Below are positions 20,321 to 28,338 of a DNA stretch of 64,000 nucleotides, piece by piece. Numbering within the stretch: the first letter of the stretch is position 1; each line of letters begins with the position of its first letter. The position numbers were made by a program, and so were the translations under genes. Source of the DNA: Gemmatimonadota bacterium (lineage in GTDB: Bacteria; Gemmatimonadota; Gemmatimonadetes; Gemmatimonadales; GWC2-71-9). Under the pieces are notes generated by a model. It was given only the letters and a program-made list of their open reading frames with translations, was not told where the DNA came from and searched no databases. Location of the stretch: NCBI GenBank assembly GCA_037440225.1, contig JBBIUN010000005.1, positions 103,450-167,449 of the forward strand. Reading direction: 5' to 3'.

Positions 20321-20940
20321 CAGGCGTGCTTCAGGACGATGGACTCGATGGCGTTCGCCACGTCCTCCGCTTCGTCAATCGTGGTCTCCAAGTTGTCGTA
20401 GATCTCCTTCCACTTGATGATCGCGATGGGGTCCCGCTCCTGATCGAACAGCCGGCCCAGCATCTCGTGGTACAAGGCGTCTCCCTCCTCCTCCAAGCGC
20501 TTCGCCTCGATACAGTGCCGCATCACGTCGTCCTGGCTCCGAAGCTTGGCCACCGCCTGCGCAATCTCGCTGGTGATTTCGTGGATCACGTCGCACAGCT
20601 CGGCAATACCCTCCGGCGCCCGCCCCAACCGAAAGATCTGAGCCCGCCGGGCCGTGCCGTCAATGCGGTCAATGACGTCGTCCAAATCCGAGGCCAATAG
20701 ATGGATGTCTTCGCGGTCAATCGGCGTGATGAACGTGCGGTCGAGCCGGTTGACTACCTCGTGGGTGACCTCGTCCGCCTCGTTCTCCAGGCGCTTGATG
20801 GACTCGGCACAGTAGGCTGCCCGCTCCGGCCGGCCGGTCAGCTGCTCCCGGAGCAACACCGCCGCCTCCTGACAGCGATTGGCCACCGCCACAAAAAGCT
20901 CGAAAAACTCTTCCTCTCGAGGCATCAGTCGAAATCGCAA
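20320..20940 (-). CDS. DUF47 phosphate transport regulator
   Basis: PREEEFFELF, LENEADEV, TFITPIDREDI, LEEEGD, IIKWKEIY. TTG start after GGAG; coupled to pit. Confidence 0.9.
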   Translation of the reverse strand: MRFRLMPREEEFFELFVAVANRCQEAAVLLREQLTGRPERAAYCAESIKRLENEADEVTHEVVNRLDRTFITPIDREDIHLLASDLDDVIDRIDGTARRAQIFRLGRAPEGIAELCDVIHEITSEIAQAVAKLRSQDDVMRHCIEAKRLEEEGDALYHEMLGRLFDQERDPIAIIKWKEIYDNLETTIDEAEDVANAIESIVLKHA

Positions 20941-21069
20941 CGTCACTCTCCTGTCCGGGGCGGCCACAAAGTACGCGCTCGGCCTGCCCGCGCCAAGTGA
21001 ACGACCTGAGCAAATCGCTCGGCAACCGACCCGCCGCGGCAGCGCACCGTGGCGGCCTGCGCCAAGGGC

Positions 21070-21105
21070 TTGCACCTGCAACCGCTTCGGGATATATTCG
21101 GGTAT
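21070..21105 (+). promoter_or_regulatory. Sigma70-type promoter overlapped by a 21-bp operator-like element (copy 1)
   Basis: TTGCAC (21070-75), 17 nt, TATATT (21093-98). CTTCGGGATATATTCGGGTAT at 21085-21105. Confidence 0.75.
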
Positions 21106-21286
21106 GGGCCTCCACCCGGTCGCCGCGGCCACCGCCCCACGCAGGCAAGACGAAGTACCCCAGCCGTTTGGATTGCAAGATCTTGCAGCAGAAGAACTTA
21201 CCCGGTGCCCGGACTGCGGCGGACACCTGGTTCCGGCTGATGGCTGCCGATACTGCCCCTCCTGTGGCTTCGGTCGCTGCGGCTGA
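21104..21286 (+). CDS. Small Zn-ribbon protein (60 aa), probably leaderless
   Basis: MGLHP...RCPDCGGHLVPADGCRYCPSCGFGRCG. The ATG starts 5 nt after the -10 box and has no SD. Confidence 0.65.
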   Translation: MGLHPVAAATAPRRQDEVPQPFGLQDLAAEELTRCPDCGGHLVPADGCRYCPSCGFGRCG

Positions 21287-22334
21287 GAGCACGGGCCCGG
21301 CCTCTCTATCCCTGCCGGTGCTGGAGCAACTGCGGCGCGGTTCTCGGTTCATAAGCCACGTCCCCCGCTCGGTCCTCAACTCTCCGGAGTCCACCGGCAT
21401 CGGCTGCTGGTCGCTCAACCCGTACGTGGGCTGCGAGTTCGGCTGCACGTATTGCTATGCCCGCTTCGCGCACCGCTACCTCGTCCAGCGCGCCCGCGAT
21501 GCCGGCTGCCTCACCCCGGCTCAGGCCAGCGAGTTCCAAGGCCCGCGCGGTTTCGAGGGGTTCGAACGCGAGATCTTCGTCAAGCAGCGCGAGGCCCTGC
21601 TCTCGGCCTTGGGGCGCGACCTCCCGCGAGCGCTGGCACGGTACCGCCAAGGGGATTGCCGGCCACTCTTGATCGGTACCGCCACCGACCCGTACCAGCC
21701 CGCAGAGCGGCGGTTCGGCATCACCCGGGCGGTGCTCGAGCGCCTGTTGCAAGCGCCCCCGCTCGCGCTGGGCCTGATCACGAAGAGCCCTCTGGTCACC
21801 CGCGACCTTAGTCTGCTGGAAAGCTTGAGCCGGAGGCACCAGGTCACGGTGCACATCTCGCTCATCAGCACCAGCCCGCGGATCATCCGCTGCTTCGAGA
21901 CCCGCTCCGCCATGCCCCATGCGCGCCTGCGTGCGCTGCGCCGGCTGGCGGAGGCCGGTCTCGATGCGGGCCTGCTCGTCGCCCCCATTCTGCCGGGCAT
22001 CACCGACCGCGCCTCTGAACTCCGCCGTTTGCTCCGTGCCGCCCGGGAATATGGGGCCCGCTTTGCCCATCCCAGCCCCCTGCGGCTGTACCGCGCCGTC
22101 CGTCCGGTCTTCTTGCCGGCCATCGAGCGGCACTTCCCCGGCTTGCTCCCCCGCTACCAGGCGGCCTATCGGCGCGCCGAAGAGGCGCCGGACGCCTACG
22201 TCCGCGCCCTTAAGGAGCGCTTTGCCAGCTTGGCGCGCGAGATTGGCCTGTCAACGCAGAGCGCCTTGAGCCAGGTTTCCCTGGGGCAGGGCCAAGCGCA
22301 ACAGTTGGCCCTGTGGACGACGAGCACTCCCTGA
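21240..22334 (+). CDS. Radical SAM protein, SPL/Rv2578c-like (start approximate)
   Basis: WSLNPYVGCEFGCTYCYAR (CxxxCxxC), IGTATDPYQPAE, ITKSPLVTRD, APILPGITD. Confidence 0.9.
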   Translation: MAADTAPPVASVAAAESTGPASLSLPVLEQLRRGSRFISHVPRSVLNSPESTGIGCWSLNPYVGCEFGCTYCYARFAHRYLVQRARDAGCLTPAQASEFQGPRGFEGFEREIFVKQREALLSALGRDLPRALARYRQGDCRPLLIGTATDPYQPAERRFGITRAVLERLLQAPPLALGLITKSPLVTRDLSLLESLSRRHQVTVHISLISTSPRIIRCFETRSAMPHARLRALRRLAEAGLDAGLLVAPILPGITDRASELRRLLRAAREYGARFAHPSPLRLYRAVRPVFLPAIERHFPGLLPRYQAAYRRAEEAPDAYVRALKERFASLAREIGLSTQSALSQVSLGQGQAQQLALWTTSTP

Positions 22335-22355
22335 AGCGCTTGCGGCCCGCTACCC

Positions 22356-23249
22356 TCAGAGGGGCAGGTGCGGCTGCCGGCTCCCGGGGCTCGCCCGAAT
22401 GCCGAGGGGCTGCAGAACCGTTCGGTAGGCGTCCTCGAGTTCCGGCGGCACTTCCACCTCAGCCTCGCCCCAGAGCTTCCGCAACATCGCTGCATTGACC
22501 GCGGCTTGACCGCGGTAATGGTTGTTGGCAATCACGTAAGTCTCTCGGGCTCGCTCCGCCACCTCGTGGATCCGATCCAACCAGGGCTTCAGTTCCTCCG
22601 CGCTATAGAGATAGTCGTAACGCTCGTGCGGCTCGGCATCCTCGCGGAACCAGTTCTCGTAATTGCGCCCATGCAACCGCACGTAGCCGATCGGGGCGGT
22701 GACCTGGGATCCAGGTCGAATGGAGTGCCGGAAGATCGGCTGGTCAATGTTCACCACCCCCACGCCGCGCTCGGCCAGAGCGGCGTAGAACTCGGGCACG
22801 TTCCAGGAACTGTGCCGCACCTCCACGGCCAGCGGCCACTCGGCAAAGGCGCTCAGCACGTCGTCCAGCCACTCGCGCGATTCGACCGTCCGCTTGAACG
22901 ACCAGGGAAACTGGGCCAGCACGCAACCCAGCCTGCCCGCACCTGCCAGCGGCTTCAGGCCTTCCTGCGCCAGGGCCACTTCTCCTTGAGTCCACGCGCT
23001 CTCCCGCTCGTGGGTGAACCGCTGCCACAGCTTGGCGGTGAACTTGAAGTCCGGGTTGTGGGCGACCCGCTTGACCCAGCTGGTGGCGGCGCGGGCAGTG
23101 GCGGGATGGTAAAAGGTCGAGTTGATCTCGATGGTGTCGAAGTAACGCGCCAGATAGGCTAAGGGATCGAAGCCTCGGGGCCGAGTGGGTGGATAGACCA
23201 TCCCCCACCAATCCGCATAGTCCCAGCCCGCAACGCCAAATCTAATCAT
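22356..23249 (-). CDS. DUF72 protein
   Basis: FGVAGWDYADW, FDTIEINSTFY, QFPWSF, VEVRHSSW, YVRLHGRN, YDYLYS. Confidence 0.92.
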   Translation of the reverse strand: MIRFGVAGWDYADWWGMVYPPTRPRGFDPLAYLARYFDTIEINSTFYHPATARAATSWVKRVAHNPDFKFTAKLWQRFTHERESAWTQGEVALAQEGLKPLAGAGRLGCVLAQFPWSFKRTVESREWLDDVLSAFAEWPLAVEVRHSSWNVPEFYAALAERGVGVVNIDQPIFRHSIRPGSQVTAPIGYVRLHGRNYENWFREDAEPHERYDYLYSAEELKPWLDRIHEVAERARETYVIANNHYRGQAAVNAAMLRKLWGEAEVEVPPELEDAYRTVLQPLGIRASPGSRQPHLPL

Positions 23250-23281
23250 GACAATCAGTTACAAATCATAACGCGGCAGCC

Positions 23282-23316
23282 TTGCGGCAGCAAATCTTCG
23301 GGATATATTCGGGTAT
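23282..23316 (+). promoter_or_regulatory. Promoter overlapped by the 21-bp operator-like element (copy 2)
   Basis: CTTCGGGATATATTCGGGTAT at 23296-23316, identical to 21085-21105. TTGCGG, 16 nt, TATATT. Confidence 0.75.
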
Positions 23317-23347
23317 AAAGCAGCATTTGTCAACCGAGTGCGCCACG

Positions 23348-24643
23348 ATGAAGCAGCTTGCAGAACTCCAAAGCGAGTGTGCCGTCTGCGTCTGGATTCC
23401 TTTGTTTGCCCTGCGCTGCGAGGAGGCACGGCGACCGGAATTGGCTGCCCAGCCTACCGCCTTACTGTCCCCGGAAGATACCCGGCGGGTCTGGATGGTC
23501 TCGGCGGCGGCTCGCCGGATGGGAGTGAGGGCCGGGGTTACCGTGAGCCAGGCGATTGGCTTGTGTCCGCCGCTCGTGCTGGTGGAACCCGATCCCGTCT
23601 GGTACGACGAACAGTTCGCCCGATTGCTCCTGGCGCTGAGTCAGGTCAGTCCGGTGATCGAGCCGGCGGAGCTGGGGCTGGCCTATGTGGGGGTGGATGG
23701 GTTGGGCGCCCTGTACGGTTCGCCGGAGCGGATCCTCGCGCAGATCGTGCGGGCCCTCGAGCAAGCGCGCTTGCAGGCCGGCGAGCGGGTGATCGGCGGC
23801 CATCAGGATCCTGCTGCCGGTGCGGGCGCTCGTCCGGTGTATCGCTTGGGATGGGGCCGGGGCAAGTTCACCGCTTGGGTGGCAGCTACCCGCGCTAGCC
23901 CCGGCGAGTTCGTGATCGTGGCGGACCATGTCCGGCTCGAGTTTCTGGCCTCGCAGCCGCTGGCCGTGCTGCCGCTCGACCCCGACATCCATCGCAAGCT
24001 CCATCAACTGGGCCTGAAGACGCTGGGTGACCTCACCGCGCTCCCGGAGCCGGCGGTCACCTCGCAGTTTGGCCGGCTGGGACAACTCGCCTGGCGCCTG
24101 GCGGCGGGCGTGCTCGCGGAACCGGTGCTCGGGCGCGAGCGGCCCGAACCGATCGTAGCTGAACTCGATTTCCCCACCCCGCTGGCGGACCGGCTGATGC
24201 TGGCCCAGGCCATCGAGAAGCTGGTCGAGCGCGCGCTGCGATCGCCGCGCCGCGTGGGCTGGCGGGTGCACGCGCTTCGCGCCCGCGCCTGGCTGGAGCA
24301 GGGTGCTTCCTGGCTTTGCGAGATCACGCTCAAAGATCCCTCGGCTGACGCCCACCGCCTGGCGGCGCCGCTCAAGACCCGACTGGAGCAGGCGCCGCCG
24401 GCTGGAGCGGTCGAGCGGTTGGCGGTCGAGTTCACTGCCTTCGCGCCCGGTACCACGGAATTGCAGCTCTTCGCCCGCGACGCTACCAGTGCCGCCCGCG
24501 CCAGCCGCCGCCAGGCGTTGCGCGCTGCGGTCCAGGAAATCCGGACCCGCTTCCGCCGCTCGTCCCTCTATCACGTGATCGAGGTCCACCCATGGTCGCG
24601 CCTCCCCGAACGCCGCTACGCATTGATCGCTTACGAGCCCTGA
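23348..24643 (+). CDS. imuB: ImuB-like inactive Y-family polymerase
   Basis: CVWIPLFAL (catalytic Asp absent), AARRMGVRAGVTVSQA, LGLKTLGDL, TELQLF clamp-like motif; lies upstream of dnaE2. Confidence 0.85.
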   Translation: MKQLAELQSECAVCVWIPLFALRCEEARRPELAAQPTALLSPEDTRRVWMVSAAARRMGVRAGVTVSQAIGLCPPLVLVEPDPVWYDEQFARLLLALSQVSPVIEPAELGLAYVGVDGLGALYGSPERILAQIVRALEQARLQAGERVIGGHQDPAAGAGARPVYRLGWGRGKFTAWVAATRASPGEFVIVADHVRLEFLASQPLAVLPLDPDIHRKLHQLGLKTLGDLTALPEPAVTSQFGRLGQLAWRLAAGVLAEPVLGRERPEPIVAELDFPTPLADRLMLAQAIEKLVERALRSPRRVGWRVHALRARAWLEQGASWLCEITLKDPSADAHRLAAPLKTRLEQAPPAGAVERLAVEFTAFAPGTTELQLFARDATSAARASRRQALRAAVQEIRTRFRRSSLYHVIEVHPWSRLPERRYALIAYEP

Positions 24644-24927
24644 ACGTCCCCCGGCAGGTGGAGGTGGAACTGGACCGCCACCGCCAGCCGAAGGCCGTCC
24701 TCGGCAGCTACGAGCAGACCCAGGCCAGTGCTGCGGGGCCGCCCGCGCCGACGGCCGGCAGAGACCGCTACGAGGTCGAAGCGATTGGCGAGGTCTGGCG
24801 AGTAGACGACGAATGGTGGCGGCAGCCGATCAGCCGGCGCTACTTCGACGTGGTCCTGCAAGGAGGAAAACACGTGGTGGTGTTCGAAGACCTGACCACC
24901 AATCAGTGGTGGATGCAGCAGCCCTAG
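24592..24927 (+). CDS. Stand-alone ImuB C-terminal-like domain (DUF6504-like)
   Basis: VEAIGEVWRVDDEWWR...RRYFDV...VFEDLTTNQWW resembles the WW/RxY C-terminal domain of ImuB. Confidence 0.72.
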   Translation: MVAPPRTPLRIDRLRALNVPRQVEVELDRHRQPKAVLGSYEQTQASAAGPPAPTAGRDRYEVEAIGEVWRVDDEWWRQPISRRYFDVVLQGGKHVVVFEDLTTNQWWMQQP

Positions 24928-24969
24928 CGGAGATCGGCCGGCGGGGCCGGCCCCACACCGCTCGACCCG

Positions 24970-27900
24970 ATGTACACCGAACTCCACTGCCACTCGGCCT
25001 TCTCTTTTCTGGACGGCGCCTCGCTCCCCGAGCACCTGGTCCTCGAGGCGCATGCGCTGGGTTACTCCGCGCTCGCCCTCACCGACCATAACGGCCTCTA
25101 CGGGTCCATGGCCTTCGCCCAGGCTGCCAAGCAGATGGGCCTCCAGGCCATCACCGGCGCCGAACTCACCCTGCTCGACGGCTCGCACGTGACCCTGCTG
25201 GCCGAAACCCCGCAGGGCTACGCCCATCTCTGCCGCCTGATCACGGAAGCTCACCTCGGGCGTCCCGATCGGCGCGACCCGCGGCTGGATTTCGCCTCGA
25301 TAGCAGAGCGTCAGGAAGGGTTGATCGTGCTCTCAGGATGCCGGGGCGGCCTGCTCCCGCAGGTGCTGCAACGCCAGGGCTTCAGCGCCGCCCGCCGGCT
25401 CGCCGAGCGCTGTCGCGCGCTGTTCGGCCGGGAACGGTTCTTCGTGGAGATTCAGCGCAATTTCGTGCGCGGCGACCGCGATCTCACCCGCGCGCTGTGC
25501 GACCTCGCCGACGCCGCGGGCCTCCGGGTGGCCGCGACCGGCGATGTGCACTATCACCGGCGCGAGCGCCACCGGCTGCACGACGTGCTGGTGGCCATTC
25601 GCCACCGCAGCACCTTGGATGGCTCGCATGCGGCGCGGCGGCCCAACAGCGAGTTTTGCCTCCGCCCCCCGGAAGAAGTGGCCGCGCTCTTCGCCGACCG
25701 TCCCGATGCGATCGCCCACACGGAATTCATCGCCCAGCGCTGCGCGGCGTTCGATCTGACCCAGGACTTGGGCTACACGTTCCCCGACTTCCGCGGTGCG
25801 GATCGGACGCCGGCACCGCGTGCCTTGGCCGAACTGTGTAGCACCCGGCTGGAAGAGCGCTATCCGGAAGGCTCGCCGCTCCGCGCCGAAGCCGAGTCGC
25901 GCCTGGTCGAAGAACTCCGGCTGATCGAGCACCATAAGCTGAGCGGCTTCTTCCTCGTCTATCACGACCTCTTCGAGTTGGCGCGCGAGGTGGCGCGAGA
26001 CGTGCGGCGCGGTACTCGGCGGGCCATGGCCAACCTGCTTCCTGGACGAGGGCGCGGCTCTTCGGTCTCGTCCATCGTGTGCTACCTCTTGGGACTCTCC
26101 CACATTGATCCGGTAGCCAACCGCCTGTTCTTGGGCCGGTTCCTGAACGAAACGCTGGCCTCGATCCCGGACATAGACCTCGACTTTCCCCGCGAGATCC
26201 GCGAGGAGCTGATTCGCCGAGTCTACCAGCGCTACGGCGAAGAGCACGTGGGGCTGGTCTGCTCGTTTCCCACCTATCGGCTCCGCTCCGCGGTGCGCGA
26301 GATCGGCAAGGCGCTGGACCTGCCGCTGGGCGAGATCGAGCAGGTGGCCAAGCTCGCCTCGCACCATTCGGCGGCGGCGCTCCGGGACGAACTGTCCCGC
26401 CTGCCCGGGTTTGCCGGCAAGGTGCACGCCCCGCTGTGGCGCGAGCTGGGCGATCTGGCCGAAGAAATCGCCGGCCTGCCACGCCATATCTCGCAGCACG
26501 TGGGCGGCATGATCATCTCCAGCCGGCCGCTGGTAGAGATCGTACCGCTGGAGCGGTCGGCCATGCCGGATCGGGTGATCTGCCAGTGGGACAAAGATTC
26601 CTGCGACGACGCGCGATTCATCAAGATCGACTTCCTGGCGCTCGGCATGCTGTCCTTGGTCGAGGAGTGCGTCGAGCTGGTGGCCCAGCGCGAAGGGACG
26701 CCGCCCGATCTCTCGCGCATTGACTTCCACGATCAAGCGGTGTACGACCGCATCTGCGCCGGCGATACGGTGGGCCTGTTTCAGATCGAAAGCCGGGCCC
26801 AGATCCAGATGATCCGTCGCACGCGGCCCCGCAACCTGGAGGACCTCGCCATCGAGGTGGCGATCGTGCGGCCGGGGCCCATCGTGGGCGGCGCGGTGAA
26901 CCCCTACGTGCGCCGCCGCGAGGCCCAGCGCCGCGCCGAGCAACAAGGGCGGCGTTACGATCCCCCGGTGGATCACCCGCTCCTCAAGGACTGCCTGAGC
27001 GAGACGCTGGGCGTCATCCTCTATCAAGACCAGGTCCTCCAGGTCTGCCAAGCGCTCGCCGGGTTCACCGCAGGCCAAGCCGAGGCGCTGCGCCGCGCCA
27101 TGAGCCGGCGCCGCTCGCGCGAACTGATGGAGGGCTTCTGGGAGGAGTTCCGCGAGGGCGCATCCCGGCGGGGGGTCCAGGAGGCCGTAGCGCGGCGGGT
27201 CTTCGAGCAGGTGATCGCCTTTTCCGAGTTCGGGTTTCCCAAATCGCACGCTGCGGCCTTCGGCTTGCTGGCGTACCAGTCCGCCTGGCTCCGGCACTAT
27301 TACCCGGTCGAGTACTACGTAGCGCTCTTCAACAACCAGCCCATGGGGTTCTACTCGCTCGACGCCCTGGGCCGCGACGCCGGGCGCCACGGGATCGAGA
27401 TCCGGCTGCCGGATGTCAACGCGAGCGACGTGTGGTGCACCGTGGAACGGGTGGAGGAGGCGTCACCGGGCGACGGCCCGCCTCGCCGCGAGGGCTCGGG
27501 CCAGCCGAAGCTCGCGGTCCGGGTGGGGCTCGCGTTTCTCCGTGACTGGAGCGAGGAAACGGCGGAGCAACTCGTTAACGAGCGCCGGCAGCATGGTCCT
27601 TTTCGGAGCCTCGGCGACCTGGTGCGCCGGGCACCGCCCCGGCTTTCGCGCGAGGCGATCGAGAACCTGGTCTGGGTGGGCGGGTGCGACGGCTTCGGAC
27701 TCACGCGCCGCGAACTCCTGTGGCAGGTAGGCCTGTGGCTCCCCCCCAAGCACGAGCGGCACGATCCGGCCCGCGTGCGCCAGCAGCTCGAGCTGCCGCT
27801 CGATCATCCCTATGAAGACCTGCCGTTCGGCGGCCTCCAGGCCGGCGAGCGCTTGGTGGCCGAGTACGAAGTCCTGGGGTTCGCGGCGGGCGGGCATCCG

Positions 27901-28338
27901 TTCCACTTGTTGCGCGGCGCCCTGCCGCCGGGACTCACCTCCAGCGCCGAGCTGGAGAAGCTCGAGCCCCGCACTCCGGTGGAGGTGGCGGGCCTGGTGG
28001 TCGCCCGCCAACGCCCTCATACGGCCAAGGGCTTCGTGTTCGTATTGCTGGAGGACGAAGCCGGCATGATCAATGCGATCGTGCGGCCGGACGTCTACGA
28101 GCGGGATCGGGTGGCCATCCGCAGCGAGCCCTTCCTCTGGGTGCGCGGCACGCTGGCCAAGGACGAGGGCTCACTCAACGTGATCGCCGAAGAGGTGCGG
28201 GCCCTTCCCGTCCGCCGCCGTGGCCCAGCGGCCAGCTTGGCGTGGGAGCAGCACCCCGGCCGATCGAAGCCGACCAGCCCCTACACCCTGCTCCAGCACC
28301 TGCGGCGCTGGGCGCCGGATCCCAAGAGCTGGGCGTAA
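24970..28338 (+). CDS. dnaE2: Error-prone DNA polymerase DnaE2 (ImuC)
   Basis: PHP domain YTELHCHSAFSFLDGAS, GRGSS, PDIDLD, ISQHVGG, KIDFLALG, FGFPKSHA, OB fold LLEDEAG. Confidence 0.95.
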   Translation: MYTELHCHSAFSFLDGASLPEHLVLEAHALGYSALALTDHNGLYGSMAFAQAAKQMGLQAITGAELTLLDGSHVTLLAETPQGYAHLCRLITEAHLGRPDRRDPRLDFASIAERQEGLIVLSGCRGGLLPQVLQRQGFSAARRLAERCRALFGRERFFVEIQRNFVRGDRDLTRALCDLADAAGLRVAATGDVHYHRRERHRLHDVLVAIRHRSTLDGSHAARRPNSEFCLRPPEEVAALFADRPDAIAHTEFIAQRCAAFDLTQDLGYTFPDFRGADRTPAPRALAELCSTRLEERYPEGSPLRAEAESRLVEELRLIEHHKLSGFFLVYHDLFELAREVARDVRRGTRRAMANLLPGRGRGSSVSSIVCYLLGLSHIDPVANRLFLGRFLNETLASIPDIDLDFPREIREELIRRVYQRYGEEHVGLVCSFPTYRLRSAVREIGKALDLPLGEIEQVAKLASHHSAAALRDELSRLPGFAGKVHAPLWRELGDLAEEIAGLPRHISQHVGGMIISSRPLVEIVPLERSAMPDRVICQWDKDSCDDARFIKIDFLALGMLSLVEECVELVAQREGTPPDLSRIDFHDQAVYDRICAGDTVGLFQIESRAQIQMIRRTRPRNLEDLAIEVAIVRPGPIVGGAVNPYVRRREAQRRAEQQGRRYDPPVDHPLLKDCLSETLGVILYQDQVLQVCQALAGFTAGQAEALRRAMSRRRSRELMEGFWEEFREGASRRGVQEAVARRVFEQVIAFSEFGFPKSHAAAFGLLAYQSAWLRHYYPVEYYVALFNNQPMGFYSLDALGRDAGRHGIEIRLPDVNASDVWCTVERVEEASPGDGPPRREGSGQPKLAVRVGLAFLRDWSEETAEQLVNERRQHGPFRSLGDLVRRAPPRLSREAIENLVWVGGCDGFGLTRRELLWQVGLWLPPKHERHDPARVRQQLELPLDHPYEDLPFGGLQAGERLVAEYEVLGFAAGGHPFHLLRGALPPGLTSSAELEKLEPRTPVEVAGLVVARQRPHTAKGFVFVLLEDEAGMINAIVRPDVYERDRVAIRSEPFLWVRGTLAKDEGSLNVIAEEVRALPVRRRGPAASLAWEQHPGRSKPTSPYTLLQHLRRWAPDPKSWA

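Follow-up and report, generated by a model that had tools for sequence, protein, structure and literature searches.

The locus considered here raises the question of why one 21-bp element should stand, letter for letter, at the head of two separate transcription units, one leading into a small zinc-ribbon open reading frame (ORF) and a radical SAM gene and the other into imuB and dnaE2. It lies in a 64-kb window (the whole stretch of DNA that was analyzed) within contig C5 of a 2.85-Mb, 69% G+C Gemmatimonadota assembly, here called G000. The element, CTTCGGGATATATTCGGGTAT, occurs exactly at 21085-21105 and at 23296-23316, both on the forward strand; these two copies are the total, no further match is present in the window at up to 3 mismatches, and the chance expectation is 0 (0 matches in 100 dinucleotide-preserving shuffles). 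An earlier note on this DNA had drawn attention to the exact duplicate and its unrelated flanks, and both coordinates and flanks hold on checking. It had also read the element as the binding site of this lineage's damage-response repressor, which would make the radical SAM unit and the mutasome members of one regulon, and that reading gains support from boxes at recA and lexA and from conservation throughout the class. The 21-mer is very probably the SOS box of the class Gemmatimonadetes, a LexA operator built as a direct repeat TTCGG-N6-TTCGG, with the canonical LexA of contig C11 in the same genome as its most likely repressor, not a new type of regulator.

The repeated element and its counterparts in the genome

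The element is a direct repeat with an 11-bp period, and its two units as seen in the window are CTTCGG and ATTCGG. It had been described as TTCGGG-N5-TTCGGG; the direct repeat and the period stand, and the unit is refined, since comparison of the sites indicates that what is conserved is TTCGG-N6-TTCGG and that the identical ATATA of the two spacers is an embedded -10. The hexamer TATATT inside each 21-mer extends from the spacer into the second TTCGG unit, of which it takes in the first two bases. In the first predicted operator copy (21085-21105, forward strand) the units at 21086-21090 and 21097-21101 are separated by N6, and the copy overlaps both the TATATT at 21093-21098 and, with its end, the ATG at 21104 that opens the 60-aa zinc-ribbon ORF. 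In the second (23296-23316, forward strand) the units at 23297-23301 and 23308-23312 are likewise separated by N6, with overlap of the TATATT at 23304-23309. The promoter inferred for the zinc-ribbon/radical SAM unit (21070-21098, forward strand) would combine TTGCAC at 21070-21075, a 17-bp spacer and the first of these TATATT hexamers, and that inferred for imuB-dnaE2 (23282-23309, forward strand) TTGCGG at 23282-23287, a 16-bp spacer and the second.

The repeat recurs at two promoters on other contigs. The 17-bp core TTCGGGATATATTCGGG has its third genomic occurrence on contig C39, some 120 bp ahead of recA, and on contig C11 two tandem TTCGG-N6-TTCGG boxes precede the lexA ATG by 35 and 10 bp. 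The genome holds 8 exact TTCGG-N6-TTCGG cores, 5 of them at SOS promoters, against 4 occurrences of the reversed control pattern. A position weight matrix (PWM) built from the lexA promoters of relatives gives the imuB site the best score in the genome (27.9) and the radical-SAM unit the second best (27.6), followed by lexA (26.2), recA (25.2) and the other lexA box (20.6), and these SOS sites fill five of the six top scores genome-wide. Other strong sites were set aside as probable chance matches: C4:124790 is 75 bp before murC, in the 3′ end of a coding sequence; C13:80886 is upstream of glnA and departs from the 21-mer at 5 positions; and C8:126619 and C13:75622 both fall within coding sequence. 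The recA leader of G000 (L161, on C39) has a further peculiarity between box and ATG, two copies of a direct repeat of about 29 bp, GAGCGATCCCGGTTGRCCAAGGACYTTAC, each of which includes a TTGRCC -35-like hexamer.

The one S24 gene of the genome, on contig C11, encodes a canonical LexA (TIGR00498, 203.6 bits vs a cut-off of 110.95), and the VAAG cleavage site, Ser122, Lys160 and the helix SLATVHEH are invariant in the LexA of 30 relatives. The boxes are placed with respect to the promoters in two ways. At lexA the order is cTTGC (the -35), a box that fills the 17-bp spacer, gTAnnnT (the -10) and, ahead of the ATG, a further box; the boxes of recA, the radical-SAM unit and imuB contain the -10, and many of the relatives' radical-SAM promoters add another box, in inverted orientation, 9-11 bp beyond the -10. 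A box between -35 and -10 or over the -10 gives the overlap of operator and promoter that would be expected for repression, and sites over or downstream of the -10 in either orientation would also fit a repressor. LexA bound at recA and at the two window promoters would mask both the -10 and the transcription start, thereby blocking RNA polymerase, and at lexA, with one box in the -35/-10 spacer and the other over the start region, it would regulate its own gene. DNA damage would lead by way of RecA filaments to self-cleavage of LexA, to which the conserved Ala-Gly site, Ser122 and Lys160 would be suited, and cleavage would derepress lexA, recA, the zinc-ribbon/radical-SAM unit and imuB-dnaE2, so that these genes would presumably be induced by damage.

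Conservation and co-variation with LexA

Throughout the class the box is a constant feature of the lexA promoters examined. An exact box, single or repeated, is present upstream of lexA in 30/30 regions from G000 and relatives of three families (two tandem copies in 28), in 80/80 public Gemmatimonadales contigs (two copies in 70) and in 18/18 regions from other orders of the same class (two copies in 15), which makes 128/128 for the class, with the reversed control pattern in 0/128 of the same regions. At recA the box is present in 25/29 regions, and the remaining four, all of family f2, carry TTCGT-N6-TTCGG. The radical-SAM operon has it in 28/28 (16 direct, 16 inverted) after one truncated locus was dropped. 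The unpublished genome G016 is left out of the recA and radical-SAM box counts; it is one of the 41 relatives in the genome tallies and one of the 24 loci with the zinc-ribbon motif described below. Stand-alone imuB promoters carry the exact box in G000, G022, G011, G012, G005 and the unpublished G016, and a version with one mismatch in G001.

Genome-wide, exact boxes outnumber the reversed control in each of five relatives (18 vs 4, 13 vs 2, 10 vs 1, 15 vs 3 and 22 vs 12). Boxed promoters in these relatives precede genes for a UvrD helicase, DnaE2, an ImuA-like RecA-fold protein, a DUF5131 protein, a glyoxalase and an ECF sigma factor; the assignments come from 20 sites with AT-rich spacers picked from the five-genome box list. 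One locus of a different build, L224 (G019:C5:457789-457826), has four consecutive CCGAA units with an 11-bp period over the start codon of a carbon-nitrogen hydrolase gene, and in the recA leaders of family f3 (L177, L179 and L183) runs of GGGGTTA repeats lie between box and start codon.

The nearest LexA loci in named genomes are all from Gemmatimonadota, mainly Gemmatimonadales. A metagenome scan for the double box gave 80 contigs, 48 of them with lexA directly downstream, and the LexA is Gemmatimonadota-like in 47 of the 48, at 59-71% identity. The remaining contig, L299 (47% G+C), has the double box before a distant LexA of 41% identity, whose helix reads SISTVFDHI vs SLATVHEHL, and L312 and L247 (about 30% G+C) have arrays of the TTCGG unit in both orientations.

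In the sister classes box and LexA differ together. Their lexA upstream regions have TTCGG boxes in 0/13 cases and TTCG[C/T]-N6-TTCG[C/T] in 10/13, between TTGAC and TATAAT-like hexamers, and the TTCGC form is found in 0/48 lexA regions of the class. All 13 sister-class LexA proteins have Lys at the position of Glu44, which is invariant in the class and aligns without gaps with Glu45 in the recognition helix of E. coli LexA, a residue that we take to be one of the base-contacting residues of helix 3. Glu facing C and Lys facing G on the lower strand would make chemical sense. One sister-class dinB promoter also carries a TTCGC box, and this form is seen only there and at lexA. TTCGG boxes in sister-class genomes were looked at as candidates and discarded, as the 11 inspected sites, chosen for AT-rich spacers, were all coding or non-promoter. 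It is possible, although we would put the chance somewhat below even, that a single change in the recognition helix of LexA (Glu44 with TTCGG, Lys with TTCGC) re-tuned the whole operator and that TTCGG is an old LexA specificity. The two forms would then represent a natural one-residue, one-base specificity switch in a LexA that binds direct repeats, and the TTCGG repeat would be no local oddity.

Alternatives to a LexA operator

Several results weigh against the element being a LexA operator. Once relaxed, the core is no more frequent in the genome than the reversed control (206 vs 210 matches at one mismatch, 2875 vs 3007 at two); with one-mismatch counts equal to the control, weak sites are therefore indistinguishable from noise and none is claimed. 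The earlier note had proposed looking for the motif at recA, lexA, uvrA, dinB and ssb, and the proposal is borne out at recA by the 17-bp core and at lexA by the tandem boxes; uvrA, dinB and ssb are not among the strong PWM sites of this genome, and the regulon found is small. The window's radical-SAM promoter has no downstream inverted box, unlike those of relatives. Over whole sister-class genomes exact TTCGC boxes show no enrichment (6 vs 14 in G041, for example). As related genomes are not independent, the Glu/Lys and G/C co-variation amounts to a single evolutionary event; it concerns lexA promoters and one dinB promoter. The overlap of the element with a -10, claimed from the first, is sustained by the TATATT inside both copies and by the cTTGC...TAnnnT layout kept at the relatives' lexA, but a generic sigma-70 scan of 20900-23450 returns 0 promoter-like sites. 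The scanner calls no promoter because the -35-like hexamers match TTGACA at only 3/6 positions, and it is uninformative here because the -35 of this lineage resembles TTGC; the assignment of the window promoters therefore rests on conservation in relatives. A search for RNA sequencing runs covering 20900-24700 listed none. Finally, G000 has two adjacent WYL-domain genes, a PafBC-like pair, at C8:156282-157437; only some of the relatives have a similar pair.

This last observation bears on an explanation in which a different damage-response regulator, either the PafBC-like WYL pair or an unrecognized repressor, binds the box and lexA is merely one of its targets; that the contact between LexA and DNA is deduced from sequence also leaves room for it. 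We consider such a regulator improbable. WYL proteins occur in 15/41 relatives (14/34 high-quality genomes), whereas LexA is found in 38/41 relatives and in 117/121 genomes of the phylum. A PafBC-like binder in particular is unlikely because WYL proteins were not found in several near-complete genomes that carry the box, namely G019, G022, G025, G026 and G027. Boxes over or downstream of the -10 in either orientation suit a repressor and not a position-dependent activator, and the sequence of the box varies together with a residue of the LexA recognition helix. Placement is also what tells on a very improbable account, namely that the repeat is a core-promoter element such as an alternative sigma factor site or a UP-like element. 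The repeat is always at promoter regions and holds the -10 hexamer in three promoters of G000, as such an element might, but its position relative to the -10 varies from between the -35 and -10 to over the -10 to downstream of it, some boxes are inverted or paired in tandem, units 6 bp apart are unsuited to -35/-10 spacing, and the genes concerned are a specific set: lexA, recA and translesion-polymerase genes.

The 21-bp identity might instead reflect a remnant of local duplication with no regulatory role. In G015, G010 and G003 imuB lies next to the radical SAM gene on the same strand, and the box is present only ahead of the first gene of the two, so that duplication of a promoter is plausible; in G000 an opposite-strand DUF72 gene parts the two and imuB has a boxed promoter of its own. 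This possibility is nonetheless close to negligible given that the flanks of the copies are unrelated, the same core stands on two other contigs at recA and lexA, and the box is conserved at orthologous promoters throughout the class. A double constraint, that of an operator and an embedded -10, mostly explains why the two copies are identical, and the same 17 bp are found at recA as well. An ancestral radical-SAM-imuB-dnaE2 operon that split may also have contributed, although the arrangements could have arisen by split or by fusion.

Known systems and the genes of the window

The LexA boxes of alphaproteobacteria and of Acidobacterium have the consensus GTTC-N7-GTTC, and the recognition helix of alphaproteobacterial LexA is probably strongly unlike SLATVHEHL. 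The Gemmatimonadetes box is like theirs in being a direct repeat with an 11-bp period and TTC, in standing at lexA, recA and imuB-dnaE2, and presumably in being bound by a LexA dimer. It is unlike theirs in that TTC is not preceded by a conserved G (the base is C in about 60% and G in about 21% of first sites) and in that GG is invariant. The earlier statement that TTC-N8-TTC is kept and that the element otherwise departs from GTTC-N7-GTTC is in agreement with this comparison.

Direct-repeat recognition evolved several times in LexA according to PMC7739468, where the paper on the Acidobacterium LexA box is reference 53 and the Patescibacteria LexA (Sanchez-Osuna, Barbe and Erill, Environ Microbiol 2017) is cited among the direct-repeat binders; the Patescibacteria motif belongs to a different phylum from Gemmatimonadota, and the metagenome contigs L299, L312 and L247 may point to a TTCGG unit shared with it. 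The same paper describes a Balneolaeota LexA motif, the direct repeat TTACACATATTTTWTACATA, which was found by comparative genomics and has a small regulon of lexA, recA, translesion polymerases, a helicase and a radical SAM protein. The Balneolaeota box is unrelated in sequence to the TTCGG box and was validated by gel shift, whereas ours is predicted from sequence. PMC3919608 places dnaE2 typically within a LexA-regulated imuA-imuB-dnaE2 cassette. The locus described here is like that cassette in having imuB and dnaE2 adjacent behind a LexA-type box, and unlike it in that the relatives' operon is headed by a zinc-ribbon ORF and an SplB-like radical SAM gene and in that imuA was not found in G000 with two queries, NF033429 and the ImuA-like protein of G026; only recA matched, and NF033429 stayed under its cut-off in every control genome too. 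Several species have their SplB radical SAM protein under SOS control, as stated in PMC8565304.

Elsewhere there are already established precedents for the mechanism, for the direct-repeat format and for LexA control of both imuB-dnaE2 and SplB-like radical SAM genes. The novelty once claimed for this SOS-type box must be judged accordingly: direct-repeat LexA boxes are a known kind, and no description of an SOS or LexA box for Gemmatimonadota was found in the openly accessible literature searched. For Gemmatimonadota, a widespread phylum of soil and sediment, the box would supply a defined SOS operator and a first regulon consisting of lexA, recA, the zinc-ribbon/radical-SAM unit and imuB-dnaE2, and it would allow damage-inducible genes to be predicted in hundreds of uncultured genomes. 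It would also add one more case of a LexA reading a direct repeat, for which a simple residue-base pairing (Glu/G vs Lys/C) can be offered.

Across the order, an operon of error-prone, mutagenic polymerase genes begins with an SplB-like radical SAM gene accompanied by a small Cys-rich partner. Loci with such an operon include G015:C5, G010:C18, G003:C404, G032:C4, G034:C1, G040:C130 and G033:C2. The gene immediately after the radical SAM gene is imuB in family f1 and ImuA-like in families f2 and f3; an ImuA-like protein is present in 1/24 relatives of f1 and in 0/10 of the genomes where imuB was found.

The genes that had been named downstream of the two copies, zinc-ribbon plus radical SAM and imuB-dnaE2, agree with the translations and with Pfam and NCBIfam. 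The Cys-rich zinc-ribbon ORF (P0001, 60 aa, 21104-21286, forward strand) ends in translation in CPDCG...GCRYCPSCGFGRCG. Its C-terminus follows the pattern CPDCG-x8-GCxxCPxCGxGRCG, and the N-terminal part is not conserved. The C-terminal motif precedes the radical SAM gene in 24/30 loci (23/29 without the unpublished G016). P0001 aligns with the final 37 residues of NF006417, the model for B12-dependent ribonucleotide reductase (E 1.1e-7), which suggests that the small ORF is a relative of the Cys-rich tail of that enzyme and acts as a separate partner for the radical SAM protein. The radical SAM gene (21318-22334, forward strand; Pfam Radical_SAM, E 5.5e-11) is of the PA0069/Rv2578c, or SplB-like, kind, with 183.8 bits to rSAM_PA0069 and 164 bits to rSAM_Rv2578c in NCBIfam, both under the curated cut-offs. 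Its start is uncertain between ATG 21240, GTG 21264 and GTG 21318, and homologues are present in 33/41 relatives. Several relatives (L137, L143 and L149) have GC-rich short tandem repeats between the zinc-ribbon ORF and the radical SAM gene.

The imuB gene (23348-24643, forward strand) encodes a Y-family polymerase-like protein of the IMS family (Pfam IMS, E 1.3e-16), and its NCBIfam matches are weak ones of the DinB type alone, all under cut-off. The error-prone DNA polymerase gene dnaE2 (24970-28338, forward strand) scores 955 bits against NF004225, vs a cut-off of 939, and has the Pfam domains PHP and DNA_pol3_alpha together with further polymerase domains. The 326-bp gap between imuB and dnaE2 (24644-24969) contains a 111-aa ORF at 24592-24927, which is without a Pfam or NCBIfam match. 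The 64-kb window contains no S24/LexA gene, as had been observed earlier, the genome's only one being that on C11.

Between the two operator-bearing units lies the DUF72 gene (22356-23249, reverse strand; Pfam DUF72, E 5.8e-58), which is divergent from imuB. In this divergent pair (region 22356-23347) the operator falls in the 98-bp gap, and on the DUF72 strand a promoter-like pair, TTGCTG-N17-TATGAT, abuts the box. The DUF72 gene may thus be co-regulated. By eye, the imuB upstream regions of G011, G012 and G005 resemble the same divergent gene.

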